Under the pieces are notes generated by a model. The model ran no database searches and was not told where the DNA came from. It saw nothing but the letters and a program-made list of their open reading frames with translations. The translations under genes were made by a program, and so were the position numbers. Positions 6,714 to 58,634 of a stretch of 64,000 nt of DNA are shown here, one piece after another; within the stretch, counting starts at the first letter, position 1, and each line of letters begins with the position of its first letter. The DNA is taken from positions 1 to 64,000 of IMG/VR virus record IMGVR_UViG_3300029959_000014; one strand, 5' to 3'. This DNA comes from a virus.

Positions 6714-9059
6714 TTAGAAGCCAAATTTTTGTAGATTGGTTTGACCTTTTATTGCTGTGTTCCATTCAATGTCAACTGCCCAGAAATATGATTCAAGTTT
6801 CTTCTTTATGGTTTTTTCAGCCATTAATTTCCAATCTACTAGATGTGATATTTGTGAGGTATCAAATCCATCATCTATACATATTGTTTCTCCATGTTTA
6901 AGGTGGACCAATCTTGGTTTTTCTCCTTCTTGGATTGTATAGTTGAAGTGTTGTAATGCATAGGTTTTCCCATCAGCCCAAGCATTCTTTTCACCATTGT
7001 AATTGGTCTTACGAAGTTCTCTAGGGATGGATATATCGTAGATATTGGCTGTTCCATCAAGAACCGATCGGTAATGATCACGGACGAATTTTGTTGCTTT
7101 TTCAACTTCACCTTTAAGTAGAGTTGTTTCTAATAAATAAGATAGACACTGTTTGGTCATTATTGAATTATCTGAACGTTTTATTTCAAGTCCCATGAAT
7201 TTAAATTCATCGCAATCTCTACCTTCTTCCCAGATGAGATGACCAGCATACTTCTTCTTACTAGCCTGTGATCTATCATTGGATTTTGGCTTAAAGATTA
7301 TACGACGAAATAATTTTTCAGATTTCAATTTGAAATGGATTTTACATCCTTGTTCATCGGACCACTTTACTAATTCTTCATTTAACCATTTTTCAAAGTA
7401 TAAACATTCGGAGCCTGTTTTGACCTCAGAAAAGAAAACGGAGTCCGTATCGCCGTAGATTACCGATTTCCCCTTCAATTTGACGAGTTCTTGAATATGT
7501 TTATTGATCTTTTGCCCAGTGGCAGTTACGAATGCTGCTTTTTCTTCATCATAACATTCAGATGACTCTGCGCCCATAATTCCATAAATAGAGTTCACCA
7601 GAGCCTTTGCTGCGGAATCACGTGCACTAGCACCGTCTAATCCACGATTCTTCTGATCTCTATAGACTTCACGCAGATCCATAAGTTTTTGAGTGGACTT
7701 GTGAATTATTCCATCGCAGTCACTAGAAAGTTCGTAGGCTAAAATTATGTGTGGGTAAAGGGAATTCAAGTCAACTGTTGCTACCCACTCATGTACACCG
7801 AGTTTTGGAGTGACAACTAATGCACCTGGAAACTTCGGTCCATCATCTTCATCGTCACCTTTGTATTTACGGCGAGGAAGGGGTTTGATGCCTTCATGTC
7901 GAACATAGGTGGCAATGATGGTGCTGTTGTGTAGACTTTCAGTAATTTTGTTCCCTGCGATAAATCGTATGGATTCAAAGAATTTGTAGAGTCCAAGTTT
8001 CTTGTCAATTACTTTGAGGGCCTTAATATCGTTTTTGCAGTATGCTATGAAATCATCCCATCGTTCAGCAACAATAATATCATTGATGATTGGCCCAAGA
8101 TCTTGATATGTGTATGCTGCTTCTTTTAGAAGTGATTTGTCAGATATGACTGATTTAAGACCATTAGATTCTCTTTGACCTTTACCAACATTGTATTTTT
8201 TGAATGCTTCCATCATATCGAGACATGCACGACCAGGAAGATAGGATCTGAATTGTTCACGCTTCTTATATATGGTTATCTTCGTTGATGGTTCAGCATA
8301 ACGACATAGACTTTTCTTTAGTGTTCCTTGGGTTCGTAGAATTTTAGCACGATTAATAATATATGGTATGTCGAATTGATCACTGTTCCATGCAGCAAGA
8401 ATATCTGGATTAAGTTCTTGGATATAAGCCATTACCATTTGGTAGAGTTCTTGTTCAGTCTCACACATGAATTGATCGGGATCATTTGATTTACCAATTG
8501 CGTAAGTGAATACGACTTCCTTGTCATTGTAGTTGTTGCCAATTTGGATAGATACGATTGGGGCAGTTGCTTCTTTTGGTCCAGTAAATCCACCAGTATT
8601 GTCCCAAGTCTCAATATCAAAATACATTACAAGGGGATCCATAGGATGATCGACTTCAACTGGAATTGGCTTATTGTCTATTACTTTGTAAGCATAACGA
8701 ATTTTATGATCGATCAGGAATCGCTTATCAAATAATACATCGCTTTCACGAGTGAACGAATATCCAAGATCTCGAACATCTCGAACATCAGTAGGAATGT
8801 TTACAATAACTTTTCTAATTTCGTTATGTTTATAGTCTAATAGGATTTCATCTTCAATTCGTTTAATTGCTGGATGAGAAAACTTTGTTGCTTCATTAGC
8901 AGGCACATATAAGTATGGTTCATATGGAAATGAATGAGTTGCAGTGACCATGGGATCTTCGTAACATCGAGAATAGAGATTTACAATTGGTATACCACTA
9001 TGTCTGTCAATGTAATAACCAGATTCCATGACCACATAAGTGCGATCATCAGCATTCAT
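6714..9059 (-). CDS. polB: family B DNA polymerase
   Basis: Exo I FDIET, motif A DLNSLYP, motif B KALVNSIYG and motif C YGDTDS are all present in order. At 781 aa it is compact. Confidence 0.92.
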   Translation of the reverse strand: MNADDRTYVVMESGYYIDRHSGIPIVNLYSRCYEDPMVTATHSFPYEPYLYVPANEATKFSHPAIKRIEDEILLDYKHNEIRKVIVNIPTDVRDVRDLGYSFTRESDVLFDKRFLIDHKIRYAYKVIDNKPIPVEVDHPMDPLVMYFDIETWDNTGGFTGPKEATAPIVSIQIGNNYNDKEVVFTYAIGKSNDPDQFMCETEQELYQMVMAYIQELNPDILAAWNSDQFDIPYIINRAKILRTQGTLKKSLCRYAEPSTKITIYKKREQFRSYLPGRACLDMMEAFKKYNVGKGQRESNGLKSVISDKSLLKEAAYTYQDLGPIINDIIVAERWDDFIAYCKNDIKALKVIDKKLGLYKFFESIRFIAGNKITESLHNSTIIATYVRHEGIKPLPRRKYKGDDEDDGPKFPGALVVTPKLGVHEWVATVDLNSLYPHIILAYELSSDCDGIIHKSTQKLMDLREVYRDQKNRGLDGASARDSAAKALVNSIYGIMGAESSECYDEEKAAFVTATGQKINKHIQELVKLKGKSVIYGDTDSVFFSEVKTGSECLYFEKWLNEELVKWSDEQGCKIHFKLKSEKLFRRIIFKPKSNDRSQASKKKYAGHLIWEEGRDCDEFKFMGLEIKRSDNSIMTKQCLSYLLETTLLKGEVEKATKFVRDHYRSVLDGTANIYDISIPRELRKTNYNGEKNAWADGKTYALQHFNYTIQEGEKPRLVHLKHGETICIDDGFDTSQISHLVDWKLMAEKTIKKKLESYFWAVDIEWNTAIKGQTNLQKFGF

Positions 9060-9079
9060 AACGATATATTTGTATTTAC

Positions 9080-9089
9080 TATTATAAAA
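9080..9089 (-). promoter_or_regulatory. TTTTATAATA promoter box 20 nt upstream of the polB ATG
   Basis: The exact 10-mer occurs at the same distance in many genes. Confidence 0.6.
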
Positions 9090-9107
9090 GAGAATGTAAG
9101 TTAAGGA

Positions 9108-9314
9108 TTATTCATCAACCAATACATAGTTATCCTTGCTGGTTTCAATCACAATAACACTACGGCATTTCTTGCACGCCGAAGTAGAACATATGGTATT
9201 GTCGTTGTGATCGGGTTCTTCCATACTAACGACCATTTGCCCACTACAAAAAATACATGGTCGATAAATGTGATTTAGGTGTTTAAATAATTTGATTTTC
9301 ATGTAAAGCCCCAT
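9108..9314 (-). CDS. small Cys-containing protein
   Basis: It is a co-oriented ORF with a CIFCSGQ...CKKC pattern. Confidence 0.35.
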   Translation of the reverse strand: MGLYMKIKLFKHLNHIYRPCIFCSGQMVVSMEEPDHNDNTICSTSACKKCRSVIVIETSKDNYVLVDE

Positions 9315-9613
9315 AGTTTAAATTCATATTTGTGACCAGTCTCATCAGAAGTAATGTATTTAAAATATCTAATTAATTCAATCCAATCATTATTAGACAT
9401 TTTCTCACTCTTTTTAGAAAAAACTTCTAGCATTATAATTAACGTTTTATGTATATTATTAAAAGCCCAAGAATTTCCATCTATACATTTCCTATCACCA
9501 TAACGTTCAAGATCTTCAATATAACTTGAAATCATATTGTATTTTAACTTTGTACATGTAGATGGTTCAGTTAAATCTAATTTAGATAATTCAGAATAAA
9601 GATTAATTTTCAT
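9299..9613 (-). CDS. hypothetical protein
   Basis: It is a co-oriented ORF preceded by CATAACTAGT at its start. Confidence 0.4.
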   Translation of the reverse strand: MKINLYSELSKLDLTEPSTCTKLKYNMISSYIEDLERYGDRKCIDGNSWAFNNIHKTLIIMLEVFSKKSEKMSNNDWIELIRYFKYITSDETGHKYEFKLWGFT

Positions 9614-9818
9614 AACTAGTAATCACCACAATAATTTACTTAAACTCAATGTTAAATTCTTCACAATATTTTTTAGCACAAACCCACAGAGCATTAGGAT
9701 AAACCCAATGATAAATGCCATATTCATCAATGGTATATTCGTCTGTCATGTTTTCCTTACAATATTCAAGGAATTTCTGATCTTTGAGTAATTCTGATAA
9801 ATTTGTCATGGTTAAACT

Positions 9819-10523
9819 TCACTGGTAACTACACCTTATTGATTCGGGAGTTATTTCAACACCAGGGTTAAGGTTCTTCACACAAAGATCCCAACGTTGT
9901 TCATGAGTCATATCATCAAAGTCACTGTAGCCTTCGTCATCAATTGGAAGTCCACTTAAACTTACATTTGGGAATCCCTCACACACTGAATATGACATTA
10001 CAATGAGATCAACGTCATCTCGTTCACACAAACTAATAACGTCATCCCAACCCATGTCTTGTCGTAGGATTTTTTTTTCTAATGCTTGTTTAATGAGGTT
10101 ACTGAACCATGTAAAGTTTTCTTTCTTGATGTGTGCGTAGATTTCCATTTGAGCAGACATTTGGCCTATTAAGCACATAACATCACTACCATACAGGGAA
10201 TTCATTGTAAGGAACCAAGGCCACGATAACAACCATTCACCCTCATATTTGATTTTATGGTTATCCATTCCAGTATGTAATGCAGTAATTATGTGTTTTA
10301 TGTCATCTGGTTTTAAATGAGATTTTGACAATACATCTTGTAAGTAATTAATTTCAATCCAATTACTGAATGGTTCATCATCTAAATTGTAGGATGATAA
10401 TTTATTATACAATATTCCAGTTCCAATTTGTTTGTCAAGGAAATGTAATAGGTGTGCTTCTCTTCCAGAAACTTCTACATCCCCAATATCAACATTCCTT
10501 GTATTAAAATAAATTCTAGACAT
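9819..10523 (-). CDS. hypothetical protein (234 aa)
   Basis: It is a long ORF in the array with no recognised motif. Confidence 0.45.
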   Translation of the reverse strand: MSRIYFNTRNVDIGDVEVSGREAHLLHFLDKQIGTGILYNKLSSYNLDDEPFSNWIEINYLQDVLSKSHLKPDDIKHIITALHTGMDNHKIKYEGEWLLSWPWFLTMNSLYGSDVMCLIGQMSAQMEIYAHIKKENFTWFSNLIKQALEKKILRQDMGWDDVISLCERDDVDLIVMSYSVCEGFPNVSLSGLPIDDEGYSDFDDMTHEQRWDLCVKNLNPGVEITPESIRCSYQ

Positions 10524-10529
10524 TAAATT

Positions 10530-10766
10530 TTACTCATCTGTATATGAATCCCACATATTTTCAACCATTTTACCAATTTCTTGTAATTCCAATCCTTGAG
10601 AATAATCTAGTTTGTTATAATTTTCTTTTAATATATCAAAAATTTCATCAATATCATTGACTCTATTTTTCAATTCTATCCAACCCTCACAGTTTTTAAG
10701 ATTTCCAGCAACACATTCAAATTCACAATCTTCAATGTTTTTAATTAATTCATTAATGGTTGACAT
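10530..10766 (-). CDS. small acidic protein
   Basis: It is a co-oriented ORF. Confidence 0.35.
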   Translation of the reverse strand: MSTINELIKNIEDCEFECVAGNLKNCEGWIELKNRVNDIDEIFDILKENYNKLDYSQGLELQEIGKMVENMWDSYTDE

Positions 10767-10768
10767 AA

Positions 10769-11494
10769 TTAATCACTCTCAATTCTAGGAGCCAGCATAT
10801 AGTAGCCAATTTCACAGCCACCAACTTGTATACTGATTTTACATGGCATGTCATTACCAGATGAAAATTCCACATCGCCCTTTAGATGTTTGAATAGACG
10901 TTTCATATAATCCATGTTATAGAGGCTACTGTTGTTGTCTACAGTTATCATGCCATTATCAATCTCGAAGGTGAGTTTATCATGATCGTTGCTAACGTAG
11001 AAGTGTGAATGGTTGTTTTGAATGTGAACACGAATTTTATCATAGTATGGTGAAGTTTTAGTCAGGAACTTACGCATGTCACTGGCCTTAATAATGGTTT
11101 TAGAAGTCCATATCATGGTTGGTTCGTTAGGTTCCTTTTTAACAACAGCATCAGCATCGTGCTTAAACACGCTACTATATTTACCACTTTCAAATTTCAA
11201 CATTGTTAATGTTTTATTTTCATCAGCAATCTGACTAATAGTTACAAATCCATAGGTGAGGTTGGCAGATGTTCGTAGGTTTTCAAGTTTAATAACAATG
11301 TCCTGTTCAGTGAGATCATAACACTCAAATACACTAGTTGGAATGGTCAGATTCACTAATGCGACATTTGCGAGATCAACAAACTTAACAATGATACCAT
11401 CAGTTTTAAAGTGCAGGGTAACTTCATCTTCACGAATAGCACACATCTGATTAATTATGTCTCTAAAGTGTAGATACTTGATAACAGTAGACAT
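10769..11494 (-). CDS. pcna: PCNA-type DNA polymerase sliding clamp
   Basis: The C-terminus GCEIGYYMLAPRIESD matches the PCNA signature (L.YYLAPKIEDE). The N-terminal DGIIVKFVDLANVALVNLTIPTSVFECYDL aligns to the first PCNA domain. Confidence 0.8.
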   Translation of the reverse strand: MSTVIKYLHFRDIINQMCAIREDEVTLHFKTDGIIVKFVDLANVALVNLTIPTSVFECYDLTEQDIVIKLENLRTSANLTYGFVTISQIADENKTLTMLKFESGKYSSVFKHDADAVVKKEPNEPTMIWTSKTIIKASDMRKFLTKTSPYYDKIRVHIQNNHSHFYVSNDHDKLTFEIDNGMITVDNNSSLYNMDYMKRLFKHLKGDVEFSSGNDMPCKISIQVGGCEIGYYMLAPRIESD

Positions 11495-11513
11495 AACTAA
11501 TAATTATATGTGA

Positions 11514-11523
11514 TATTATAAAA
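11514..11523 (-). promoter_or_regulatory. TTTTATAATA box 19 nt upstream of the PCNA gene ATG
   Basis: It has the same motif and geometry as the other copies. Confidence 0.55.
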
Positions 11524-11566
11524 AGGTGTGGAAATATCAATTACAAAACTTAACGCCGATCAACTC

Positions 11567-11938
11567 CTACTGGTATTTTAGAAAAGATCTTCGATACCAA
11601 GCATAATACTTATTATATAATTCTTCAATTTTGTATTTGGCATCTTTGTCTATGAAGTAGCGATATCCACCATATCCTGATTTTGTTTCTCCATATTCAC
11701 CATAGATTACTATCCAATCACTCAAAGTGTCAAGTGAATGATTTACATCATTTTTAGATATTAAGCCTTCAAAAACTTCACAGAGTCGTGTAAACCATAC
11801 AGGTTGACCATTCGTGTTATTGTGGTAGATTTCACAGGCAATAATTAGATCAATACTTAACTTGCGTTTGAGGCTGTCAAAATGCATTTGTTTTAAATCT
11901 TCATAAGATGGTTCACAATCACAAAAGTCAGGCATCAA
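11567..11938 (-). CDS. hypothetical protein
   Basis: It is a co-oriented ORF with a TTTTATAATA box upstream. Confidence 0.45.
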   Translation of the reverse strand: MMPDFCDCEPSYEDLKQMHFDSLKRKLSIDLIIACEIYHNNTNGQPVWFTRLCEVFEGLISKNDVNHSLDTLSDWIVIYGEYGETKSGYGGYRYFIDKDAKYKIEELYNKYYAWYRRSFLKYQ

Positions 11939-12156
11939 GTAATGTTGGTGTTAGTATTATAAAAACTAGTTGATCGGTGTATGGATTACTAATTTAGCCC
12001 TCAATCTTTTCCCAACCAATGTCGATGTGATTCCACATCCAATCATTGAGCATCTCACTTATTTCATCATCGGAAGTGTCGTCATCAACTTCCAGAGTTG
12101 TTGTTTGTTTACACTTCACTAAATTCATTCCCACGTAAAATTCAACCTTCATAACA

Positions 12157-12351
12157 TTATCGCTCCTTTGTATTTATCATTCCAAACCATACTATAACTG
12201 GAAATACTACTCCTGTTAAAATTCCAAACACTAATAAAGTTCGTTCATTGACATTGTATAAACCAGATATAGCCATTCCAATACATGCTCCATAGAACAA
12301 TAACAGACCAATCATCACACTAAATTTTTCAAATACATCCATAACATTCAC
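12157..12351 (-). CDS. small two-TM membrane protein
   Basis: It is strongly hydrophobic. Confidence 0.35.
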   Translation of the reverse strand: MNVMDVFEKFSVMIGLLLFYGACIGMAISGLYNVNERTLLVFGILTGVVFPVIVWFGMINTKER

Positions 12352-12566
12352 CGCAATGCTTTATAATTCCATTGCACGAGATTTCCACAAACTTCACATC
12401 GAGGCGAAACACCAGTAATTAGATGATCAGTGTCCATGATATTTACATTGCGTTGACAAATTGGACAGTAATATACCGGTATAACGTGTTCAGGATTCGA
12501 TGACAACTTTCTAAAGAGATCTTCACGATCTTTAAAATATTGTTCATATCGTTTTGTGTTAAACAT
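12348..12566 (-). CDS. small zinc-ribbon protein (CPICQ...CEVCG)
   Basis: It has two CxxC pairs. Confidence 0.4.
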   Translation of the reverse strand: MFNTKRYEQYFKDREDLFRKLSSNPEHVIPVYYCPICQRNVNIMDTDHLITGVSPRCEVCGNLVQWNYKALR

Positions 12567-12575
12567 AATTATACT

Positions 12576-12806
12576 TTATACCCAATCAATTCTAAATTCA
12601 TCATATATTCCAGATTCTTTCTCCAATGCTTCAATAATCATTTCATGACATCTAATTAATTCATCTTTTATATATGGTCCATATTCTCCAATAGATGGAA
12701 CAGTCGACTTATATATGATACCAATTGGTTCATTTTTATACTGGAATGAAAAATTTAATTGATATTCATATGGAGATAATCTTTCTAAATTAACATCGTT
12801 AGACAT
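12576..12806 (-). CDS. hypothetical small protein
   Basis: It is a co-oriented ORF. Confidence 0.35.
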   Translation of the reverse strand: MSNDVNLERLSPYEYQLNFSFQYKNEPIGIIYKSTVPSIGEYGPYIKDELIRCHEMIIEALEKESGIYDEFRIDWV

Positions 12807-12814
12807 AATACACC

Positions 12815-13021
12815 TTACTTGTATGATGGAATTTTACTCATGATCCATGCAATTAATTTTTCCTTGAGATCGCTATTTCGAGTGCGATGAAGGTAGACGT
12901 TATAAACGGTTGCTATACAAAGTCCAAGTATACATATGATGCCGATGATCATTGTGAGATAAGGTTCCATACTAGTATTTTGGCGTTGAGGTTTAAAATA
13001 GTTACGTTTTATTAAATCCAA
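12815..13021 (-). CDS. small TM protein
   Basis: It has a central hydrophobic helix. Confidence 0.35.
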   Translation of the reverse strand: MDLIKRNYFKPQRQNTSMEPYLTMIIGIICILGLCIATVYNVYLHRTRNSDLKEKLIAWIMSKIPSYK

Positions 13022-13653
13022 TCTATAGTATCATTAATAGATGATTTATATTCTTGTGTTATATTATCAATAATTTGAGTTTTTTCTATATCTTCATTTA
13101 ATTTTTTAATTCGAATGTTATGTTCACTTTCTATTATTTCCTTTTCTAATCTATAGTTATAATCATCAAATAACGAATTCAATCTCTCAATGGTGATTTG
13201 TTTAATTATGTCATCATAAAACCAAGTATATTTACTACATACATGAAGCAATGAATCATTTCTTGATGAATATGTAATTGGTTGTATAAATTGCAACACT
13301 AACAACTTTTTTCCATCTATTAATTCACAATTAGGAGTAAATCTATTATATTTTTGGTTAATTGTTGGGCTTTCTCCATCTATTAAATATACATTTACAA
13401 AAGTATCACAATAATATTCTTTGCTTATAAATAATTCTATATACAATTTATTTTTATAAATTATTTGTATTTTACCATCAAAATATTTTTCATAATACCC
13501 ACTATACATTATTGAGATAATGAAAGAAATGAAGTTGATAGGAAGAATATCATTAGCATCTAAATTTGGAATTTGTTCATTTCTCTCAATACTTAATGTA
13601 AATAAATCAACATGTTCCATTTCCTCGTGACTATATATGTGCTCAAATGACAT
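13012..13653 (-). CDS. hypothetical protein (213 aa)
   Basis: It is a co-oriented ORF of low complexity. Confidence 0.4.
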   Translation of the reverse strand: MSFEHIYSHEEMEHVDLFTLSIERNEQIPNLDANDILPINFISFIISIMYSGYYEKYFDGKIQIIYKNKLYIELFISKEYYCDTFVNVYLIDGESPTINQKYNRFTPNCELIDGKKLLVLQFIQPITYSSRNDSLLHVCSKYTWFYDDIIKQITIERLNSLFDDYNYRLEKEIIESEHNIRIKKLNEDIEKTQIIDNITQEYKSSINDTIDWI

Positions 13654-13704
13654 AATATAGGTATTGATGTTTGGATTTAAAATAGTTGCGGGGTTTTATA
13701 AAAA

Positions 13705-15081
13705 TTAGATGAGTATTCCTACTCGTTTTCTAATGTCTGATATGTTTTCATCAATTAGAAGTTTTCCGTTGCTGTAGACGAGTGGTAGGTTGTCGAATCG
13801 ACCTGCCTTTGATTCTTTACCTGGAGTAGTTTTATTGACATTGTGCCATACTCCATTACGCTTTACCGCGCTGCACTTCATAGCAAATCGATTGGTGTCC
13901 CTGTTGTGATTTTGAAGAAGATTTCCACCACAACCAAATATAATGTTACTTGGAGCAAACTTATGCTTGATTACAGTTTCATTGTAGATTTTCTCTACCA
14001 TTGCAATATCGACACCATCGCCAATAATTATACTGATATGAGGATCTAGAACTTTATAGCCATGATCGTTTATGGTTCCTCCATAACAATCCCAAAGTGC
14101 TTGGAGAATTACTGGGGCATTTATTTCATGGCTTCCAGAATCAGGACGACACACAATACGACCTTTGCGATTCATTATCAATGACTTTAGTTCTTTACAG
14201 AAGTATTCATTGATTGCATGTTTCCAATCATAACTATCAATGACCAGTGAAATTATACAATCATCACCATATAGTTTATCGGTGGTTTCAATGATGTGTC
14301 GATAAGCCTCTAGTTCGTGATCTTTACCCCATGAAGTGATCGTGCTGTGTTCTGCTGCAACCACAGATACTCCGATTGGGAAAGTGTTGTCTGGGTGATA
14401 ATACCAACGAATTTTGTCTATTGCTGGGTTGTTGTCAGTTCCAATGAAATTTAGAAGATGTCCGATTCCACACATTTCAGCGCTCATCAATGAACTTGCA
14501 CCACGAAGGCCAAAGTCATTGAGGTGAACTGGGCTTACATCTTCGCCCGCTAGATCACAATACCTCTTAATGGTTTTATAAAATGCATGACTGATAGTTG
14601 CAGTATTGGTCATCGCATAGCAATGCATGAGCAAACTCTCAACGTAATTAGTAAGCCATGGAACTTTCGGATCAGTGTTTTCCAGTGCTAATACAGGAGT
14701 TCCTGGTTTTACAATGGTTCCTTCTGGGAGCGCATAAATGTTTATCGGTAAGTTTCCACCATGGGCCTTTTTAATGTGTTCCCAACCTTCATAATTGAAG
14801 AATGGTTTTCCGAATATCCCATTGCTAATTATACTGGATTCTTCAATAAAATCACGATCTATATAACTATCAATGAACCCATATTCTTTGAGGACAAATT
14901 GAAGTCCACACCATACAATTTCATTGAATTGTGCTCCATTACGTGGTTCCATGTAACTATACATTACTTCAAGATCCGGTGGATACTGAAAGTGGTGAGT
15001 TTGCTTGTAAGCATCCGTCAAATTGGGAAATGATCTTTCTGGCATAGTTCTCATCAACTTATAATTGTTATAACTGCTCAT
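13705..15081 (-). CDS. NAMPT: nicotinamide phosphoribosyltransferase (NAMPT)
   Basis: There is collinear similarity to NAMPT across the whole protein: DAYKQTHHFQYPP, ALPEGTIV.PGTPVLALENTDP...WLTNY, DFGLRG, AAEHSTITSWGKDHE, RPDSG, IIIGDGVD and IFGCGGNLLQ. Confidence 0.93.
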   Translation of the reverse strand: MSSYNNYKLMRTMPERSFPNLTDAYKQTHHFQYPPDLEVMYSYMEPRNGAQFNEIVWCGLQFVLKEYGFIDSYIDRDFIEESSIISNGIFGKPFFNYEGWEHIKKAHGGNLPINIYALPEGTIVKPGTPVLALENTDPKVPWLTNYVESLLMHCYAMTNTATISHAFYKTIKRYCDLAGEDVSPVHLNDFGLRGASSLMSAEMCGIGHLLNFIGTDNNPAIDKIRWYYHPDNTFPIGVSVVAAEHSTITSWGKDHELEAYRHIIETTDKLYGDDCIISLVIDSYDWKHAINEYFCKELKSLIMNRKGRIVCRPDSGSHEINAPVILQALWDCYGGTINDHGYKVLDPHISIIIGDGVDIAMVEKIYNETVIKHKFAPSNIIFGCGGNLLQNHNRDTNRFAMKCSAVKRNGVWHNVNKTTPGKESKAGRFDNLPLVYSNGKLLIDENISDIRKRVGILI

Positions 15082-15599
15082 TACACATCATTGTTATGTG
15101 ATCGAATAATTTGTTCAACTTCATTTCTAGTGTGTTCTGTAAAGTGCATTTTATGATAATTGGAATTATAATATGATAAAACTTCCTCCCAACCGCCTGT
15201 TGGATTGGTTCCTTGTGCTCTACCAGCACCACGCCAATCAGCAAGCATCTCACGAACATACTTGTATGGCATATCAAGGCACCTAAATGTTCCATTATCC
15301 AAAGCCATTATCCAGTATTGCCAGTGGTGTTTATTGGTTCGTTGATGATAATGCCACGCCAAATCAAATAGATTGTCACCGGTTTGAGATGCATCGTAAT
15401 ATCCAGTTTTATCACGAACAAACTTACCCTTACCTTCCTTTAAGTAGAAATAATTTGCATATGCATAGAAATTTGATGGTCTAAATTTGTTGATGTCATG
15501 AAGTATGCCCTGAATGTATAGTCCATCCTCAAAGCAATATTTCATCACCCAAAACTTGTGAGTAATCACATACTTAAAATATTTATAATATTGTTTCAT
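15081..15599 (-). CDS. hypothetical protein, possible small HD-type hydrolase
   Basis: It shows an H...HD spacing (ITHKF...ILHDINKF). Its stop abuts the NAMPT start, making it a likely co-transcribed partner. Confidence 0.3.
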   Translation of the reverse strand: MKQYYKYFKYVITHKFWVMKYCFEDGLYIQGILHDINKFRPSNFYAYANYFYLKEGKGKFVRDKTGYYDASQTGDNLFDLAWHYHQRTNKHHWQYWIMALDNGTFRCLDMPYKYVREMLADWRGAGRAQGTNPTGGWEEVLSYYNSNYHKMHFTEHTRNEVEQIIRSHNNDV

Positions 15600-15603
15600 G
15601 ATA

Positions 15604-17124
15604 TCAACCTAGTAATGCACTGCCAATTATATTGCAGAACTTTTTGGCCTTGTAACCTAGCATCAAAGTTAAATGGTTGCTGGATCTGGTGGCTGCCACG
15701 TAATATATGCGATGTTCTTCAGCGATGTCGCCATCAGCATTGAATCCTGGATCATAGATGACAACGCATGGTGATTCTAAACCTTTACTAGCGTGGATAG
15801 TATCGACTATAATACTATTAGGATCTATGCGTCGTTCGCTTTTAATGGCCTTGAAGATGATTTTGTGGAGGAATTCATCACTATAACTAAATCGCATACC
15901 GTATAGATCCGTGATGGCCTTGTTGGGATTCATGTATGCAGCCTTCATAAATTGTAGCATGTCGAACTTGACCTTTCGATTGTTTTTCATAATGTAGGCA
16001 ATTGTCCACGTGTTATATCGATTGGTGAGCGAAGTATGTGGTATGCCAGCATAGTTAAGTGCCATATGAATTTGGTTCGCGCCCGCCTTGATCCTGGATA
16101 ATATCATGACTTTGCCATAACGACGATGAAGTTTGAGGATTACTTCGGCGACTTCAGCAGCGTCCTTTGGAGTTTCAATTGCTATACTACCACCATCTTC
16201 TCGTGGAGATCCATGTGATGGTTTACCAAGCATTAAATCGCCCATAGTGTGAATTCGTGAAGGATTTCTCCAAGACTTAACTCTACGTTCTGATGTGGCT
16301 CCAACATCATCATCAACGCGAGTATCAATCATTAATTTTGGATCTGCACCACGAAACTTGTAGATGCTCTGATTATCATCAAGGGCCAATATTACCGTTT
16401 CAAATATGTTGGCATCTCTCCACATCTCATATAACCTGTATTGTGCATATGAAACATCCTGACCTTCATCGAGAACTAGAAACTTACGAGATCTTGGCAA
16501 CAATCGTTTGTTATAAACTTCATTTATATAGTCATCGTGTTCATAACACCCCTTAATCAACTTGTAGGCTTTCCAAGCAGTAAACAAATCATCAGTGAAT
16601 TTTTTACATTGACTATCAATGAATTTCATCTGTTTAACTACATCAGGCCACAACGAAACGTCCAATGCACAAGTTTCGAGATAACTATTTACTTTGAAAA
16701 ATACGTTGCCAGATTTGAGTGATGAGTTGTAATTTGGATCAGTGATACCCTCATCGACTTGATATTTGAATTCATATTCAAGGCCATTGCTGTTGCAAAA
16801 TCCCTCATAATACTCTTGATTGGTTTTTGACTCGGTGATTACTTTTATACCTGAATTTGGATTTGATGACATGAAAACTTGAAGTGCAGCACTATGAATA
16901 GTTTTAACATTGTTCTTAATATCATCATCACTGGCCATTGGGAAAATATCGCTAATTCTACCCTTAACATCACTTATCTGACTTTTAGTAAATGATATAA
17001 ACAAAATGTCATCAATACTAATGTTTTCAGAATCCTTTGATTCTTTGATTATCTTTAGTAAATTGGACGTTTTTCCACTGCCTGCACAGCCAACGTAACG
17101 AATAACGCGAGTCATTATGTACAT
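15604..17124 (-). CDS. UvrD/PcrA-like SF1 DNA helicase
   Basis: Walker A GCAGSGKT, motif III LDDNQSIYKFRGA and motif VI TIHASKGLE are present. Confidence 0.8.
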   Translation of the reverse strand: MYIMTRVIRYVGCAGSGKTSNLLKIIKESKDSENISIDDILFISFTKSQISDVKGRISDIFPMASDDDIKNNVKTIHSAALQVFMSSNPNSGIKVITESKTNQEYYEGFCNSNGLEYEFKYQVDEGITDPNYNSSLKSGNVFFKVNSYLETCALDVSLWPDVVKQMKFIDSQCKKFTDDLFTAWKAYKLIKGCYEHDDYINEVYNKRLLPRSRKFLVLDEGQDVSYAQYRLYEMWRDANIFETVILALDDNQSIYKFRGADPKLMIDTRVDDDVGATSERRVKSWRNPSRIHTMGDLMLGKPSHGSPREDGGSIAIETPKDAAEVAEVILKLHRRYGKVMILSRIKAGANQIHMALNYAGIPHTSLTNRYNTWTIAYIMKNNRKVKFDMLQFMKAAYMNPNKAITDLYGMRFSYSDEFLHKIIFKAIKSERRIDPNSIIVDTIHASKGLESPCVVIYDPGFNADGDIAEEHRIYYVAATRSSNHLTLMLGYKAKKFCNIIGSALLG

Positions 17125-23071: not shown

Positions 23072-23809
23072 CTAGAAAAACCCATCTGGAAATAACTCTA
23101 CATTTCTATCATACATTCCACAATCATCTAAACTACACAATTGACAGTAAGGATATTTGCCTTCGCTACAAGTTCTTTCAAAGTTTCCAGTTCGTTTCGA
23201 TTCCCGTAAATTCTTCAAAACCTTTACTATGGTAGATTCTTTAGAAGGTGCCATATATTCAACTTGACACAGTCTTGGATTAATAACACGCCCAAGTGTA
23301 ATATTCCATTCATCATATGGTGGTGTATGATTTAATAGATATTTATAGAAACCAAATTCCTTTTGAAGTGATGGTTTATAAATCGATTTACTAGTCTTAT
23401 ACTCCACGATAATATACTCATCATTTACTTTGTCCACTCGATCGATGATACCACGCAACCCCAATTCCTCATTAACCACCATAGTTTCGCGCATAATAGG
23501 CATCCACAAATCATAATTATTATTGAACTTCTTGAGTCTACTCCATTCGTAGTCCATGAAACATCTGATCATCTTTTGTTCATATGGACTAAAGCCAGGA
23601 TGTATCAAACCATACCAATCTTCAGGAGCCACTTCTTTTGCCACTTCAAAAAACTTATCGTAGAACTCATGTATCCTAGATCCTATAGCCAGCGTCGGAT
23701 TAGTTTCACTCTTAATACCGTCAACATATCTGAACTTGTATTGCATTGGACAATACGAATACGTGCTAACTTGGCTCTTGGAAATCAATTGTTTTGTTAA
23801 TTCATCCAT
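23072..23809 (-). CDS. Cas4/RecB-family PD-(D/E)XK nuclease with a 4-Cys cluster
   Basis: It has an N-terminal YSYCPMQY, GIIDRVD...IIVEYKTSK (D...ExK), a QKEFGFYKY (Q..Y) motif and C-terminal CSEGKYPYCQLCSLDDC. Confidence 0.75.
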   Translation of the reverse strand: MDELTKQLISKSQVSTYSYCPMQYKFRYVDGIKSETNPTLAIGSRIHEFYDKFFEVAKEVAPEDWYGLIHPGFSPYEQKMIRCFMDYEWSRLKKFNNNYDLWMPIMRETMVVNEELGLRGIIDRVDKVNDEYIIVEYKTSKSIYKPSLQKEFGFYKYLLNHTPPYDEWNITLGRVINPRLCQVEYMAPSKESTIVKVLKNLRESKRTGNFERTCSEGKYPYCQLCSLDDCGMYDRNVELFPDGFF

Positions 23810-23819
23810 AATTTAACCT

Positions 23820-24710
23820 TTAAATAAAACATACCCCACCCATATAATTCTCAATCAATTCAATGAAATATGGTGTCCAATAATCCCATTCATTTTTATC
23901 ATGGTGCAATTTTGCATGACATGGCCTACATACACAAACATATTTCGTTTCTTCAAAAGGTAGTGTTCTTTCTTCTGGATAGATATGATGAATTATTGCA
24001 TCTTCATCGTTTTCTCCATGAACTTTACCACACATTATACAAGTATTTTTAAAGAAGTTTCTAACTCTTGCTTGATTATGTTTTTGTATAAATGTATGAT
24101 GATAACCATGATAATTTATAACATTTTTAAATACTGGATGATTTTCACCTTTACAATGTTCTCCAAACCATGTACCTTGACATTTAGTGCTGCAAAATGA
24201 CTTTTTATATATGTCAATAGAATGTTGAGTTCGAATTAATTCAACTCCACATTGAGCACAAACTGTTTTCACTCTTGGTATGTAAGTTGATCGCTCTTCA
24301 CCTTTTTTACCATGTTTCTTATACCAAGCACCAAAACACTTTTTAGAACAAAACTTTCCTCTACCCTCATTGATTACTCTAGAACGAGAAGATTCAAACT
24401 TAACACCACATTCTAGGCAAGTCATTTCAATATTTCCACCTTTCCATTGCGGACTTCCTGGACCTTTCATACGTTTAGACTGGGCAGTAAATTGACATTC
24501 TTTTGAACAAGTCTTATTATGCCCATTTCTAATTCGATAATATGTAGTTTTAATTTCTTTTCCACACTCCATACAAATTACTGTAAGTCTTCCATCATGA
24601 AACTCACCACGATCCAACATCGTTTTACATTCTTCAGAACAGGCATCTAACTTTTCATCACTTTCAAAATTAGATCCACAAATAATACATCTATTAAGCA
24701 TAGAAATCAA
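23820..24710 (-). CDS. HNH endonuclease with multiple zinc-ribbon modules
   Basis: It has repeated C..C...C..C units, then RNFFKNTCIMCGK...HHIYP...CRPCH, which is paralogous to 779-1393. Confidence 0.75.
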   Translation of the reverse strand: MISMLNRCIICGSNFESDEKLDACSEECKTMLDRGEFHDGRLTVICMECGKEIKTTYYRIRNGHNKTCSKECQFTAQSKRMKGPGSPQWKGGNIEMTCLECGVKFESSRSRVINEGRGKFCSKKCFGAWYKKHGKKGEERSTYIPRVKTVCAQCGVELIRTQHSIDIYKKSFCSTKCQGTWFGEHCKGENHPVFKNVINYHGYHHTFIQKHNQARVRNFFKNTCIMCGKVHGENDEDAIIHHIYPEERTLPFEETKYVCVCRPCHAKLHHDKNEWDYWTPYFIELIENYMGGVCFI

Positions 24711-24742
24711 AAAGAAAAATGAAGATTACAAAACTGTAACCT

Positions 24743-25594
24743 TTATTCGAACTTTACACCGGATTTATCAGTAAGATACTGACGAAGTTCATCAAAGTTA
24801 ATATTGCTCTTTTCTTCGTATGTATCACCAAATCTACCACCATGAATAATAAACACGTGGTTATTTACAACTCTACGAAGTTCCACATTGAGATCGAGCC
24901 AATGGAAAGTGTTCTTCTGCCAATCTGGATCAAAGATACCAAGACGCTCACCTTTGGAACCAAATTTCTCCTTGGCCTTAAACGTCAAAATGACATTCCA
25001 ATTTGAAGCCTGTAGAAGCCTCATAAACTGTGTCCAACGTTTATTTGCGCGTCCCCACTCCGTTGACATCATATCACCAGTAGATTTCACAGTTTTAAGA
25101 TCAGTCTGTTCTTGGAGCCAAGCCTTCAAGAAATCCCAAAGGTCACTACAAGAATCCACAATAATAGTACCAACCTGTTCAGATTCACTAACTGCATCAA
25201 TCAACTGACCAATGACATCAAATGCAACTTCCATTGAAGATACAACATCCAAATGGTTACCTTTCTTCTCTGCGTATTCAACAAGATCCACAATGAAAAT
25301 CTCTCGTTGAACATCTTCCGGTAACTGTTTAACCAGAATGTTTGCAGATTTTTCAGTGTCAAGGAAATAGATAGGTCTCTTCGCTGTGAGGCAGAAATGC
25401 GTTTTGCCGCATTTTGCGGGCGCAAATATGCCCATGCGTAGACATTTGACCGCCGGTATATCAATAGCAGGTTTAAACATCGCGAGGAGGTTTTCAGATG
25501 GTTTCTTCATAGATTCCTTTGTATTCTTCTTTGGAGTTTCTACAACCGTAGATTCCACTTTAGGTTCAATAACTTCTGTTGTATCCCAAGACAT
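24743..25594 (-). CDS. Sak4/AAA_24-like RecA-fold ATPase
   Basis: Walker A is GIFAPAKCGKT, followed by YFLDTE and Walker B IIVDSCSDLW. Confidence 0.5.
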   Translation of the reverse strand: MSWDTTEVIEPKVESTVVETPKKNTKESMKKPSENLLAMFKPAIDIPAVKCLRMGIFAPAKCGKTHFCLTAKRPIYFLDTEKSANILVKQLPEDVQREIFIVDLVEYAEKKGNHLDVVSSMEVAFDVIGQLIDAVSESEQVGTIIVDSCSDLWDFLKAWLQEQTDLKTVKSTGDMMSTEWGRANKRWTQFMRLLQASNWNVILTFKAKEKFGSKGERLGIFDPDWQKNTFHWLDLNVELRRVVNNHVFIIHGGRFGDTYEEKSNINFDELRQYLTDKSGVKFE

Positions 25595-36849: not shown

Positions 36850-36859
36850 ATACACCATC

Positions 36860-37461: not shown

Positions 37462-37510
37462 ACTCTCCTTACTCTCGCCTGGGATTTTTATCTCGCAGAG
37501 GATTTCAGGG

Positions 37511-55859: not shown

Positions 55860-56062
55860 GGCGTATAAGATTATAAAAGTTACTATTATAAAAATGGTTG
55901 ATTAACGTGAAGATCATGGATCGTTGCGTAACAAGTTAATTGCGTAGTCGTGGAATTGTCCCGGATCTTCGTTATACATAAACTCTATTATTTCACTATA
56001 TCCATAGTCTTTAATGAGTTTAATCATTTTAGTTGTAAAATCGTAGTCATATACACCATATC

Positions 56063-56311
56063 TCATGATTTATGTCTCCATTTCATTTTATCTTCATCAA
56101 TTACACTTTCTAATGCGTGTCCACGTTCTACAGGGTTGTCTAAATCATGTTCATTTCGAATTATAGATTCAAGATAACCAAGATTTAATCCAACATTATA
56201 CATGTTGACATTTTCAAATTCATGAGGATTTGCCTTTTGGATATTGGCTTGGATGTCAGTGATACATCGTAAGCAAAATTCCCGATAGGTGTTGTTAAGT
56301 TTCATGATCAC
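56063..56311 (-). CDS. hypothetical small protein
   Basis: It is a co-oriented ORF. Confidence 0.35.
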   Translation of the reverse strand: MIMKLNNTYREFCLRCITDIQANIQKANPHEFENVNMYNVGLNLGYLESIIRNEHDLDNPVERGHALESVIDEDKMKWRHKS

Positions 56312-56504: not shown

Positions 56505-57173
56505 TTATTCATCATCGCTATTGTCTAGATAATAGATTTTGGGTTCGCCATCTTCAGTTGTTACAATTGCATACATTTCGCGAAGGCCACTCCCTGAATC
56601 GATGTATGGTTTTATCCAATCAAGGAACAGTTCAATTTCATCGTAGTTTTTGAGATTGCTACGAGTAGATATCTGCCAACAATGCCTAATATCGTCATAC
56701 CAGATTTTAGCCATTGGTTCATTCACACCAAAGTAGTATGATGCGCATTGAAATATCCAACGCCATCTTGTATCACTAAATAGTGGGTGATCTGGCAACC
56801 ATGGTTCTTTTGAATTATTATCTATTATTTCATCCCAAGTTTTAAATTCACTTGAATCAACCATAAATTTCAATAATCGTATGATTTCATGTGGTGTATC
56901 TTCCCCGAGGCTGCACCCAAATATAAGTTCTGTATAATATCCCATGTTAGTGTTTGCCTTTTCATTTATGAGTTCAACTAAATCCAATGCATAATACCAG
57001 ATTTCTGATGCTCCATAGGTATGACTAAGATCATATGCAATTGCATACAATTTACCTGCTTTTGGATGATCCTTGATATTAAGTTCATCGAAAATGTCAT
57101 CACGAAGTTCATTGAAATGGGTGCTATAGTAATCATTATCAATTCCTCCATATTCTAATTTTTTAATTCCCAT
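56505..57173 (-). CDS. hypothetical protein (222 aa from the internal ATG; the track ORF starts at an upstream GTG at 57200)
   Basis: The ATG at 57171-57173 is preceded by AAAAAGGTGAACATTAGT, with GGTGA 9 nt upstream. The 16-nt unit AAAAAGGTGAACATTA is tandemly duplicated. Confidence 0.45.
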   Translation of the reverse strand: MGIKKLEYGGIDNDYYSTHFNELRDDIFDELNIKDHPKAGKLYAIAYDLSHTYGASEIWYYALDLVELINEKANTNMGYYTELIFGCSLGEDTPHEIIRLLKFMVDSSEFKTWDEIIDNNSKEPWLPDHPLFSDTRWRWIFQCASYYFGVNEPMAKIWYDDIRHCWQISTRSNLKNYDEIELFLDWIKPYIDSGSGLREMYAIVTTEDGEPKIYYLDNSDDE

Positions 57174-57227: not shown

Positions 57228-58166
57228 TTACTTGTTTGCACTGTATTCCATTGCCAACTGAAATCCTTTTTCATCGAGAGCACGACCATTTGAACTTTTG
57301 AAAATGTAACCAGCACGGAGAAGGTGAGGTTCAACTGTGCGTATTAGAACTTCTTTTTCTACTTGCAGTTGTAGGGCGATGCTTTCCACACCAGTTTTTT
57401 CACCATTAAATACTTCGAATAGTGTTGTAATGTATGCTCTATCAATTGTGTTAAGGCCATGTTCATCTATACCATTGAGAGCCAATGCATCAATTACAAT
57501 TTGTTCACTAATTTCATTGTAGTTGCTATAATGCATTTTGATATGGTCACGGACTCTTCTGATGAGATTTTGGCTATCACGAGGAACTCCTTTAGATGCA
57601 CGAGAAATTACAGTGATGGCATCATGAGTTAGATTGAGATTTTCGCTGATGACATTATTGATTACGATGGTGTCCAGTTCATCACTAGTGTAATTTTCAA
57701 GTCTAATTTGAATGGGGAATCTATTGTAGAATGGTGTTGCTATTTTTGATATCTCGGTGGTGGCACCTATGAGTGTGATTTTTTTAGCATCGAGAAGTAT
57801 AGGTGCTTTACCTGGAAAATTAAACTGGACTTGTCCCTGATCAAAGAATTTGTAGAGTCCTTCGGCTTGATCAGTAACCAAATTGTGAATTTCATCCATA
57901 AGAAGGATTGAAAAGTCCTTCATCTTCATTAACTTGATGTTTAACTTACCGATGTTTTTACCGCTGCAAAGAATTTCCTCAAATTCAACGCCCATTTCAT
58001 TAGCAATGACTTTGGCGAGTGTGGATTTTCCAGCACCGCTAAATCCAGATATGAATACATGATCTAATGGTTCATTACGTGATTTTGCTGATGCAATGGC
58101 CTCTCGAAGCATAGCCTTAACATCTTCATTACCGATGTAGTCATCAAATGTGTTAATAATTTTCAT
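57228..58166 (-). CDS. ruvB: RuvB-like Holliday-junction AAA+ ATPase
   Basis: It is collinear with bacterial RuvB. DYIGNEDVK...ASAKSRNEPLDHVFISGFSGAGKSTLAKVIANEMGV matches EYVGQ..V...AAK.RGE.LDHVLL.GPPGLGKTTLA.IIANEMGV. LMDEIHNL, ITLIGATT...NRF, KGVPRDSQNLIRRVRD and EPHLLRAGYI also align. Confidence 0.85.
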   Translation of the reverse strand: MKIINTFDDYIGNEDVKAMLREAIASAKSRNEPLDHVFISGFSGAGKSTLAKVIANEMGVEFEEILCSGKNIGKLNIKLMKMKDFSILLMDEIHNLVTDQAEGLYKFFDQGQVQFNFPGKAPILLDAKKITLIGATTEISKIATPFYNRFPIQIRLENYTSDELDTIVINNVISENLNLTHDAITVISRASKGVPRDSQNLIRRVRDHIKMHYSNYNEISEQIVIDALALNGIDEHGLNTIDRAYITTLFEVFNGEKTGVESIALQLQVEKEVLIRTVEPHLLRAGYIFKSSNGRALDEKGFQLAMEYSANK

Positions 58167-58262
58167 TTCTAGTTACCTCCGCGTTAAAATTTTGAACTGT
58201 GATGTTTGGAACGTTTTGAACCAAACCACCACACTAGAGTTTACATTTTTAGTTTTGAAATA

Positions 58263-58634
58263 TTACAATACTGGTTTGTCGTTTAGGTCATTTATAACTT
58301 TCTCCAAAGCATGAGTATATAATGTATCAATGAGCCACATAGAAGGAGTCATTTCAACGTCCTTTATGAATTTAAGTATTGCATTCCACACTTCAGTGTC
58401 ATTGTATTTGGCAAGGAATTCATGACCAGTCCATGTAAGATTATACACCACATTTGTATTATCGACAGTTCTTTCCTTTGTGATGAATCCACCATCAATA
58501 CAAAGTGCAATGTGACAATGTTTAGGATAGTCGTATTCTTTACCATTTGGAAAATTGTTAGAAATGTCTAGGAGAATTTCCCTGATGAGATTCATATCAC
58601 GTTTCATAATAGTTGACCTGTAAAATATTTTCAT
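58263..58634 (-). CDS. hypothetical protein upstream of the ruvB-like gene
   Basis: It is a co-oriented ORF, likely in the same transcription unit. Confidence 0.4.
   Translation of the reverse strand: MKIFYRSTIMKRDMNLIREILLDISNNFPNGKEYDYPKHCHIALCIDGGFITKERTVDNTNVVYNLTWTGHEFLAKYNDTEVWNAILKFIKDVEMTPSMWLIDTLYTHALEKVINDLNDKPVL

Follow-up and report, generated by a model that had tools for sequence, protein, structure and literature searches.

The prevailing view of RuvB is that of a cellular motor dependent on RuvA, whose gene usually adjoins ruvB in bacteria. The coupling of the two proteins was described by Wald et al. (2022; PMC9477746). Domain III of RuvA docks on helix α3 and the presensor-1 hairpin of RuvB, and serves as a nucleotide-exchange factor and ATPase activator. 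The nucleotide cycle triggered by RuvA is carried out by a network of Arg21, Glu128 and Asp129. In this network Arg21 contacts the ATP α-phosphate, and the trans-acting Glu128 and Asp129 sense Arg21 and Arg218 and place the attacking water; substitution of Asp129 compromises branch migration. RuvB function can diverge: for Mycoplasma RuvBs, one report (PMC3364216) describes helicase activity and no branch migration activity. Viruses can also carry one uncoupled component of the RuvABC system. Thus, phage and poxvirus resolvases of the RuvC type act without RuvB (jumbo phages; Iyer et al., 2021; PMC7824862). In two papers that mention 'RuvB' in phages, the name refers to unrelated or marginal matches. 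Here, we describe a RuvB-like protein encoded by 64 kb of viral DNA (positions 1 to 64,000 of IMG/VR record IMGVR_UViG_3300029959_000014; hereafter the window). The arrangement is the mirror image of the RuvC-type viral resolvases: those are RuvC without a RuvB-like ATPase, whereas the window has RuvB without a recognised resolvase. A RuvB carried by a virus without RuvA or RuvC genes is unusual, and moderately surprising to a specialist, yet the protein is still clearly RuvB.

We tentatively propose, with a probability of about 0.45, that the protein is a functional AAA+ motor for viral recombination-dependent replication and repair, and that it probably works without canonical RuvA. Judging from its sequence and predicted fold, it would be a ring translocase on double-stranded DNA. 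The same viral toolkit would include a Sak4-type ATPase, a PD-(D/E)XK nuclease, a UvrD-like helicase, PolB and PCNA. The motor would most likely drive branch migration or fork remodelling of viral joint molecules. From the gene context, a ring translocase that migrates or regresses branched DNA would fit recombination-dependent replication of a large linear genome. The protein may act autonomously or through a partner not homologous to RuvA. We infer RuvA independence because the N-terminal arginine and the second acidic residue of the RuvB signature are lost, and the presensor-1 hairpin is shortened, in the viral clade to which the protein belongs (hereafter clade A). This argument is correlative.

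Assignment of the protein to the RuvB family, already made in the initial annotation, was borne out. All three RuvB Pfam domains scored above their gathering cut-offs (Table 1) and the sequence blocks cited earlier, VIANEMGV (residues 53-60), LIGATT (132-137) and RRVRDH (203-208), were found. NCBIfam RuvB equivalogs were the top matches, with 237 and 215.7 bits, and DnaX/RFC families came next with at most 41 bits. Both RuvB scores are under the equivalog cut-offs (NF000868 and TIGR00635; 237 versus 282 and 215.7 versus 299.05). Hence, the protein is filed as a RuvB-family homologue and not as an equivalog. Matches to PDB sequences were all to RuvB (18/18) and aligned end to end. An AlphaFold2 model, built from 50 sequences, had a mean pLDDT of 94.4. 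Of 50 Foldseek matches listed for this model against the PDB, the first 46 were RuvB chains (E-values from 1e-33 to 1e-14), with TM scores of 0.8-0.87 for full-length chains; none of the 50 was a RuvBL chain. The first match outside RuvB was the E. coli clamp loader (TM 0.53). Taken together, domains, motifs and predicted fold identify the protein as a true RuvB-family member.

Two other identities were considered and rejected. The best PHROGs matches are clamp-loader families (PHROG 168/5846, 8.4e-19), because PHROGs v4 has no RuvB family. A clamp-loader identity is contradicted by the score (41 bits versus a cut-off of 250), by the fold (TM 0.53 versus 0.85) and by the lack of a collar domain. 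Clamp loaders such as RFC, DnaX and T4 gp44 have the AAA+ core in common with the window protein; the latter lacks the collar and has the RuvB head. A TIP49/RuvBL identity was dropped since TIP49 was absent from the best 25 of 29 Pfam families (E≤0.1). The initial annotation had named a grouping with clamp loaders or TIP49 as the way in which its RuvB assignment could fail; neither scores nor fold placed the protein there.

We compared the window protein with RuvB from E. coli, T. thermophilus, T. maritima and S. thermophilus (PDB 1IN4, 1HQC, 7PBL, 8EFV). The three-domain fold is the same, at ~30-35% full-length identity, and the Walker A and B motifs, sensor 1, arginine finger, sensor 2, presensor-1 hairpin and a head with a Gly-Arg hairpin are all present. 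In the large ATPase domain, Walker A is G41-T49 (GFSGAGKST), Walker B is D91-E92, sensor 1 is T136/T137 and the arginine finger is R149. The same domain holds an altered signature, D109-Q110-G111, and the presensor-1 hairpin (112-126). Sensor 2 (P195-R196) is in the lid domain, and R196 was invariant in the alignments. The DNA-contacting β-hairpin of the head is K290-S-S-N-G294-R295, where bacterial RuvB has RTPRGR; the first arginine is replaced by lysine and the second by asparagine, and G294 and R295 are invariant. The role of the three head-hairpin arginines has been described for P. aeruginosa RuvB (PMC10071043). Further differences are that the window protein lacks the ~20-residue N-terminal extension, has polar residues at the exposed positions of helix α3 and is virus-encoded, with no adjacent ruvA and no ruvC in the sequence covered.

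Identical copies of the window protein are encoded by six contigs from different samples. An exhaustive HMMER search over 1.84 billion cluster representatives recovered only four closer relatives (53, 48, 44 and 42% identity); all other sequences were at most 39% identical. Clade A comprises the window protein and these four metagenomic relatives. Its five members are 41-53% identical and were monophyletic in 100 of 100 bootstraps of a neighbour-joining (NJ) tree (305 columns, no outgroup). The four relatives are in phage-like contexts; one is on a 135-kb contig also found in IMG/VR (IMGVR_UViG_3300044712_001062; hereafter the 135-kb relative). The nearest neighbours of clade A in the tree were short (~310 aa) metagenomic RuvB-like proteins on small phage-like contigs, followed by a second viral lineage, group B, described below. 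No RuvB match in a collection of 50,697 phage records exceeded 36% identity to the window protein, and the annotated RuvB matches in that collection look like host DNA, either prophage-derived or in unusually large 'phage' records. Residues K47, D91/E92, T136/T137, R149, R196 and G294-R295 are invariant across clade A and bacterial RuvB. Retention of the catalytic motifs at 41-53% identity implies purifying selection on an active ATPase. Conservation within clade A thus favours a functional, DNA-binding ATPase maintained by selection.

Conversely, residues of the RuvA relay have changed. The window protein starts exactly at the conserved 'RP' and has K2 at the position of E. coli R24; this arginine is K or I in four of the five clade A members. 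The RuvB signature MEDY is FDQG in the window protein and LESG or LENG elsewhere in clade A. Within it, E. coli D132 is replaced by Q, S or N in 5/5 members, and the aromatic residue that follows by G or C. Given a constant offset of +3, E. coli R24 and D132 would correspond to S. thermophilus Arg21 and Asp129. The presensor-1 hairpin region has 22-24 residues in clade A (23 in the window protein) versus 26 in 177 of 267 RuvBs. In the model, DSSP assigns the hairpin strands to residues 112-115 and 123-126, with pLDDT above 90. Helix α3 differs as well: where bacterial RuvB has A-A-(I/M), clade A has N-(I/T)-K. With its catalytic core retained and the RuvA-relay residues lost, this virus-only clade is a natural experiment on the RuvB ring without RuvA. 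It also makes clade A RuvB a compact candidate for RuvA-independent branch migration or fork reversal.

The search for partner genes has a defined reach. We estimate that the genome of the window's virus is at least ~147 kb. A 91-kb ENA contig (ERZ27247097 k141_387203) overlaps the window only at ~56-64 kb and runs ~83 kb further; the window and another 9.6 kb past it bring the coverage of this virus to ~74 kb, out of at least 147 kb. We also covered a contiguous 70 kb of the 135-kb relative (contig positions 30,554-100,719), which takes in the terminase and the start of the structural module. Gene order in the relative matches that of the window (RNase H, RuvB, MarR-Tmk, a 400-aa protein, Sak4 and the PD-(D/E)XK nuclease) and the two have many small ORFs in common. 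Every called window ORF of at least 50 aa was scanned with Pfam and PHROGs, and all six-frame ORFs with phmmer. The Pfam and PHROGs scans found no RuvA, RuvC, RusA, endonuclease VII or Hjc in the window. With E. coli RuvA and RuvC as phmmer queries, no window ORF gave better than E=0.62 (RuvC). The 9.6 kb past the window and the 70 kb of the relative likewise showed no RuvA, RuvC, RusA, endonuclease VII or other recognised resolvase. An HMM of RuvA domain III only, which recovers E. coli RuvA, gave nothing significant in the window (best match 9.1 bits, 15 residues aligned). The initial annotation had called the RuvB stand-alone, with no RuvA or RuvC. Since the window is less than half of the genome, that absence holds for ~74 kb of the virus and 70 kb of its colinear relative, and not as a statement about the whole genome. 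The description as stand-alone has support over roughly half of both related genomes, and the half covered takes in the regions in which partner genes would be looked for first.

Group B provides the closest viral comparison. A scan of IMG/VR with the clade A alignment gave 59 loci; canonical RuvA was present at only one of them, and 32 form the syntenic group B. The RuvB-like proteins of this group (L014-L054) have 296-310 aa and match RuvB_N (1.5e-46) and RuvB_C (3.4e-16). Their genes are in a cassette with the order zinc-ribbon protein, ~300-aa RuvB-like protein, Volactin-like actin (Pfam 4.1e-65) and trypsin-like protease (example in Table 1). The upstream gene overlaps ruvB and encodes a product of ~140 aa with an N-terminal Cys/His zinc ribbon. 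The last ~45 residues of this product resemble RuvA domain III (Pfam RuvA_C, E=0.0026; hhalign to residues 158-200 of E. coli RuvA, E=3.7e-4), and an HMM built from these residues only picks up E. coli RuvA with 18 bits. The zinc-ribbon protein is thus a candidate 'mini-RuvA' adaptor. Like clade A, group B RuvB is virus-borne and short, has the full RuvB domain set and has no canonical RuvA or RuvC nearby; it groups with clade A and other short RuvB-like proteins in the NJ tree. Conversely, it is only 30-33% identical to the window protein and keeps the N-terminal RP and a MED(F/Y) signature. The adaptor gene always precedes ruvB and the Volactin-like actin gene follows it; neither family occurs in the window. 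HMMs of nine conserved group B neighbour families, the adaptor among them, had no match in the window or at the clade A loci (E≤10). Hence, group B has both an adaptor and the Arg/Asp relay, and clade A has neither. It is chiefly on this correlation that we favour operation independent of RuvA, or with a partner not homologous to it, over the use of host RuvA. Together, clade A and group B suggest that viruses repeatedly took the RuvAB machine apart and re-wired it.

One small ORF was considered as a domain-III-like candidate. It encodes 50 aa (55914-56066), is 1.2 kb downstream of the RuvB gene and was the top match of the domain III HMM; small tandem ORFs of a similar kind are downstream of RuvB at another locus (L013). 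We dropped this candidate: only 15 residues align to domain III, and hhalign gave probabilities of ~1% against both the L013 ORFs and the group B adaptor.

Several observations weigh against a motor that is independent of RuvA. Around 20 full-length cellular RuvBs lack both R24 (replaced by V, N, I or H) and D132 (replaced by Q or H). These proteins (P0003-P0038 etc.; loci L115, L116), one of which is from a Babeliales MAG, have ruvB-yebC-yicC synteny and no ruvA within 6 kb. The substitutions are compatible with a cellular, presumably RuvA-coupled, RuvB, and there is apparent covariation of the cis-Arg/trans-Asp pair in these sequences. Thus, the Arg/Asp change is a variant within the RuvB family, not grounds for exclusion from it, and the substitutions alone are no proof of RuvA independence. 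The best-scoring cellular relatives are of the Babeliales (Dependentiae) type (P0038, P0014; 35-39% identity). They resemble the window protein in the joint loss of R24 and D132 (D to Q/H) and in having no adjacent ruvA. Conversely, they are longer (334-368 aa), have the normal 26-residue hairpin region and are chromosomal, in the ruvB-yebC-yicC context; the NJ tree does not join them to clade A, and they were not accepted as its donor lineage. In the model, the shortened hairpin is present and still amphipathic, so the viral protein could bind host RuvA. Finally, a RuvA-like or resolvase gene could be present in the remaining half, approximately, of each genome.

These points bear on the rival explanations. 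It is possible, if somewhat unlikely, that viral RuvB plugs into host RuvA (and RuvC), so that altered motor subunits speed the processing of viral intermediates on host RuvA-Holliday junction complexes. The model has both docking elements, the presensor-1 hairpin and helix α3; cross-species complementation between RuvA and RuvB is established (PMC9477746), and the terminase of the relative and the phage homologues described below make a RuvA-carrying bacterial host plausible. However, in clade A the α3 positions have changed to N-(I/T)-K, the hairpin tip is 3-4 residues shorter and the Arg/Asp relay of the RuvA signal has been lost. Moreover, no RuvA would be available if the host were archaeal, as PCNA, PolB and promoter geometry might indicate. 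We consider it quite unlikely that a cognate RuvA, a resolvase or both are encoded elsewhere in the genome, in which case RuvB would not be stand-alone. Coverage leaves room for this, most small ORFs of the window are orphans, and the cryptic adaptor of group B was missed by standard annotation. On the other side, such genes would be expected in the early region, in the recombination and replication modules and at the start of the packaging/structural genes. All of these were covered, the early region in full, and Pfam, PHROGs and phmmer revealed no partner there; the best match of the domain III HMM aligned only 15 residues. Furthermore, a RuvA-like gene adjoins ruvB in both bacteria and group B, whereas the flanks of clade A ruvB vary.

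Repurposing of the RuvB protein is a distinctly improbable explanation. The new role could be loading or unloading of viral PCNA, translocation in replication or packaging, or that of a decoy that poisons host RuvAB. No other AAA+ ATPase was detected in the window, where PolB and PCNA genes were found and none for an RFC- or gp44-type loader; moreover, the top PHROGs matches of the protein are clamp-loader families, and its RuvA-coupled control residues are altered. Yet its RuvB scores are ~200 bits above its clamp-loader scores, Foldseek separates the two folds clearly (TM 0.85 versus 0.53), the winged-helix head keeps its DNA-contacting hairpin, there is no collar, and the gene is 46 kb from that of PCNA. 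The PHROGs result reflects only the gap in that library. Clamp-loader function is therefore very unlikely on sequence and modelling grounds. Recent capture of a cellular gene with no viral role, or assembly contamination, is hardly credible. RuvB matches in GenBank 'phage' records are indeed mostly host DNA. However, cellular RuvBs are at most 39% identical to the window protein, the gene is in a same-strand viral operon with viral GC content on six independent contigs, and its orthologues are syntenic (RNase H ... RuvB ... MarR-Tmk) in the 135-kb IMG/VR genome. Synteny and clade depth effectively refute this explanation. We therefore retain, at the tentative level given above, a viral branch-migration or fork-remodelling motor that probably operates without canonical RuvA.

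The host of this virus bears on the argument. The initial annotation held that the host domain could not be resolved from the window, and this proved accurate: archaeal-type and bacterial-type signals coexist. Relatives were sampled from landfill leachate wells and rice-root plaque. We put the chance that the host is bacterial at roughly two in three. The large terminase of the 135-kb relative (L123:12212-13594) has its closest matches in myoviruses (Microcystis Ma-LMM01-type, Thermus TMA and Pseudomonas), and none of its matches was from an archaeal virus. Many window genes are 50-60% identical to homologues in phages of bacteria; the 679-aa protein (59%, Herelleviridae) and the phrog_4334 domain (52%, Cellulophaga phages), both described below, speak against an archaeal host in this way. 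Together, these matches make a bacterial host that carries RuvA plausible. The packaging/structural module of the relative (L123:12212-20278; contig ~92-100 kb) is itself very divergent. In the 460-aa large terminase only the ATPase half matches the Ma-LMM01, TMA and Pseudomonas phage terminases (20-27% identity). The ORFs that follow (559, 374, 316 and 312 aa; putative portal/capsid) had no Pfam match, and the 559-aa ORF had no match in the phage collection.

Signals of the opposite kind come from promoters and replication genes. Of 129 minus-strand genes, 17 have a TTTATAWW box (mostly TTTTATAATA) whose first base is 27-33 nt upstream of the ATG; the genes for PolB, PCNA and Tmk are among them. 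Under random placement, boxes with this spacing had a mean of 0.8 and a maximum of 5 in 2000 trials. Shine-Dalgarno-like motifs precede 1/17 genes with a box versus 44/112 other genes, and two genes of the 135-kb relative show the same spacing. This geometry resembles that of archaeal TATA boxes, with leaderless first genes and Shine-Dalgarno-led internal genes. A σ70 −10 element would not give this box spacing for leaderless mRNAs. Alternatively, the box could be a phage-specific promoter with a fixed 14-nt leader. No enrichment was found in scans of the window for σ70 promoters and intrinsic terminators. The 135-kb relative also encodes an 82-aa histone-fold protein (L123:7916-8164, + strand; ~88.07-88.31 kb) that matches Pfam CBFD_NFYB_HMF above the cut-off (9.6e-7, 29.4 bits); no homologue was detected in the window or at the other clade loci at hand. 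A scan of GTDB with PolB found nothing, and one of IMG/VR found only relatives with 24-28% identity. A related scaffold was not listed in the CRISPR-host tables of the landfill study.

It is conceivable, albeit unlikely, that clade A RuvB drives branch migration or fork remodelling independently of RuvA in a virus with archaeal-like replication and transcription signals. These signals are the archaeal-type PCNA, a PolB whose closest matches are from haloarchaeal viruses, TATA-like boxes at a fixed −28 to −32 relative to start codons without a Shine-Dalgarno sequence, and the histone-fold gene of the relative. Were the host archaeal, a bacterial-type junction motor would operate in a cell without RuvA or RuvC, its nucleotide-cycle control re-wired with the loss of the Arg/Asp relay. 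Such a motor might cooperate with PCNA or an archaeal resolvase. More broadly, the virus draws attention to a poorly known, AT-rich group with genomes of 135-150 kb, sampled from landfill leachate and wetland soil, in which archaeal-type and bacterial-type DNA-metabolism genes are mixed.

The RuvB gene is in a long same-strand run of small, tightly packed genes with ~33% GC. The 96-nt gap upstream of the gene has a Shine-Dalgarno sequence (Table 1) and no TTTATAWW box. Hence, the RuvB gene is probably expressed from within an operon of same-strand genes.

Table 1. Features of the window and of one group B locus.
Feature	Position	Strand	Evidence or comment
RuvB-like gene (clade A viral RuvB)	57228..58166	-	ATG-initiated ORF, 312 aa
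Shine-Dalgarno GGAGGT	58175..58180	-	8 nt upstream of RuvB ATG; context AACGCGGAGGTAACTAGAA-ATG
RuvB large ATPase domain, residues 6-156	57699..58151	-	Pfam RuvB_N 1.6e-28; alignments; DSSP
RuvB small ATPase (lid) domain, residues 159-234	57465..57692	-	Pfam AAA_lid_4 2.1e-9
RuvB C-terminal winged-helix (head) domain, residues 235-303	57258..57464	-	Pfam RuvB_C 1.1e-16
Downstream neighbour, 222 aa (231 aa from GTG at 57200)	56505..57173	-	phrog_4334 domain, ferredoxin-like fold
Upstream neighbour, 123 aa, DUF2513 protein	58263..58634	-	Pfam DUF2513 1e-13
Recombination module	23072..25594	-	Pfam, PHROGs; colinear in 135-kb relative
PD-(D/E)XK/Cas4-like nuclease	23072-23809	-	Pfam
HNH-like ORF	23820-24701	-	
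Sak4-type AAA_24 ATPase	24743-25594	-	Pfam, PHROGs
Replication/repair gene region	6714..17124	-	
PolB	6714-9059	-	
Archaeal-type PCNA	10769-11494	-	phmmer
NAMPT	13705-15081	-	NAPRTase 7.3e-38 and NAMPT_N
UvrD-like helicase	15604-17124	-	
RNase H	63155-63559		
TTTATAWW boxes (examples)	9088-9081 (PolB), 11522-11515 (PCNA), 33133-33126 (Tmk), 52864-52857, 63127-63120	-	
Group B example, locus L037: zinc-ribbon protein, RuvB-like, Volactin-like actin, protease	6132-6545, 6538-7434, 7735-8736, 8787-9563		

The genes that flank RuvB in the window had been proposed as possible analogues of RuvA or of a resolvase. This idea did not hold: synteny, wide distribution, fold and hhalign all speak against it. 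Neither gene is a conserved neighbour of RuvB among the four clade A relatives. The initial annotation had seen no RuvA or RuvC features in the flanking ORFs; hhalign against E. coli RuvA and RuvC gave probabilities below 1%, the upstream ORF is a DUF2513 protein, and the downstream one has a phrog_4334 domain. The upstream DUF2513 protein had no informative PDB match, and searches with other ORFs upstream of RuvB gave nothing. The C-terminal domain of the downstream protein is 50-60% identical to proteins of ~130 aa from phages of Cellulophaga, Caulobacter, Bacillus (SPbeta-type), Clostridioides, Salmonella and Mycobacterium; RuvB is absent from all of these phages. For the phrog_4334 domain itself, identity to the Cellulophaga phage proteins is 52%. 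In a third related genome (landfill, 133-136 kb, 29% GC) a phrog_4334-domain homologue is 2.4 kb upstream of a RuvB-like gene. By these gene positions, the domain and RuvB are in loose co-residence in the early region, with no fixed pairing.

That genome carries a third lineage of RuvB-like protein (L112/L113 12801-13718; 305 aa, 36% identity) in which the N-terminal arginine is absent and the signature is MQDR. It is represented by contigs ENA k141_2303915 (133 kb) and JGI Ga0376279_0000039 (136 kb). One third-lineage contig, binned in NCBI as a Dehalococcoidales MAG, is probably a mis-binned virus. DUF7167 and DUF7249 genes, as well as the phrog_4334 domain, are carried by both this virus and that of the window.

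The other replication and recombination genes of the window largely agree with what had been noted before. Pfam confirmed UvrD, Sak4 (AAA_24), the PD-(D/E)XK/Cas4 nuclease and the SPFH/Band 7 (prohibitin) protein, and a T4 endonuclease V-type glycosylase is also encoded. The recombination module is the likely source of the joint molecules that a RuvB motor would process. The PCNA-type clamp was confirmed as archaeal-like by full-length phmmer matches to PCNA of Haloferax (3.9e-16; residues 6-241 to 7-247) and A. fulgidus (2.7e-15). Pfam gave nothing for this protein at E≤1e-3. Its tblastn matches in the phage collection were to archaeal viruses only, and a look-up over 5.8 billion proteins found no homologue other than itself at E≤1e-5. 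The best full-length matches of PolB are from haloarchaeal tailed viruses (~26% identity). Conversely, the exostosin-type glycosyltransferase of the initial annotation is weak (29.3 bits versus a cut-off of 33.4). SPFH proteins are common in prokaryotes and phages. With SPFH widespread and the GT47 match below threshold, the 'eukaryote-like' flavour ascribed to prohibitin and exostosin was overstated.

Some further features of the window were recorded. Besides the TTTATAWW box there is a second intergenic motif, GGGCACATACA(TAT), followed ~12-20 nt later by TATA(T/A)AAA (591-601, 29209-29219 and 54588-54598 on the minus strand; 30540-30550 on the plus strand). It may be another promoter class. 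Positions 36123-37784 are 1.6 kb without ORFs, with 40% GC. This segment has four elements like the tRNA T-arm (GTTCRAWTCC; minus strand, at 36790, 37200, 37416 and 37523), an exact 46-nt direct repeat (37235-37280 and 37554-37599) and one Rfam tRNA match (36779-36859; 32.3 bits) with a 14-nt insertion in the anticodon loop. These elements may represent clustered tRNA-like RNAs that are unusual or carry introns. A tRNA-Leu(CAA) called by ARAGORN (62189-62271, minus strand) is doubtful; it has a non-canonical T-loop and a weak D-arm, and is under the Rfam gathering score. Auxiliary genes encode NAMPT, a SPASM-domain (radical SAM-type) protein, an Rnl2-type RNA ligase and the SPFH/Band 7 protein (13705-15081, 40321-41397, 35235-36122 and 1372-2241). 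Finally, a 679-aa protein (17810-19849, minus strand) matches phrog_1735 with E=7.8e-259. Among phage records, 557 carry a homologue (Salmonella, Klebsiella, Caulobacter and others), and identity to Bacillus Herelleviridae proteins is 59% over the full length, a striking degree of conservation in an orphan-rich genome.

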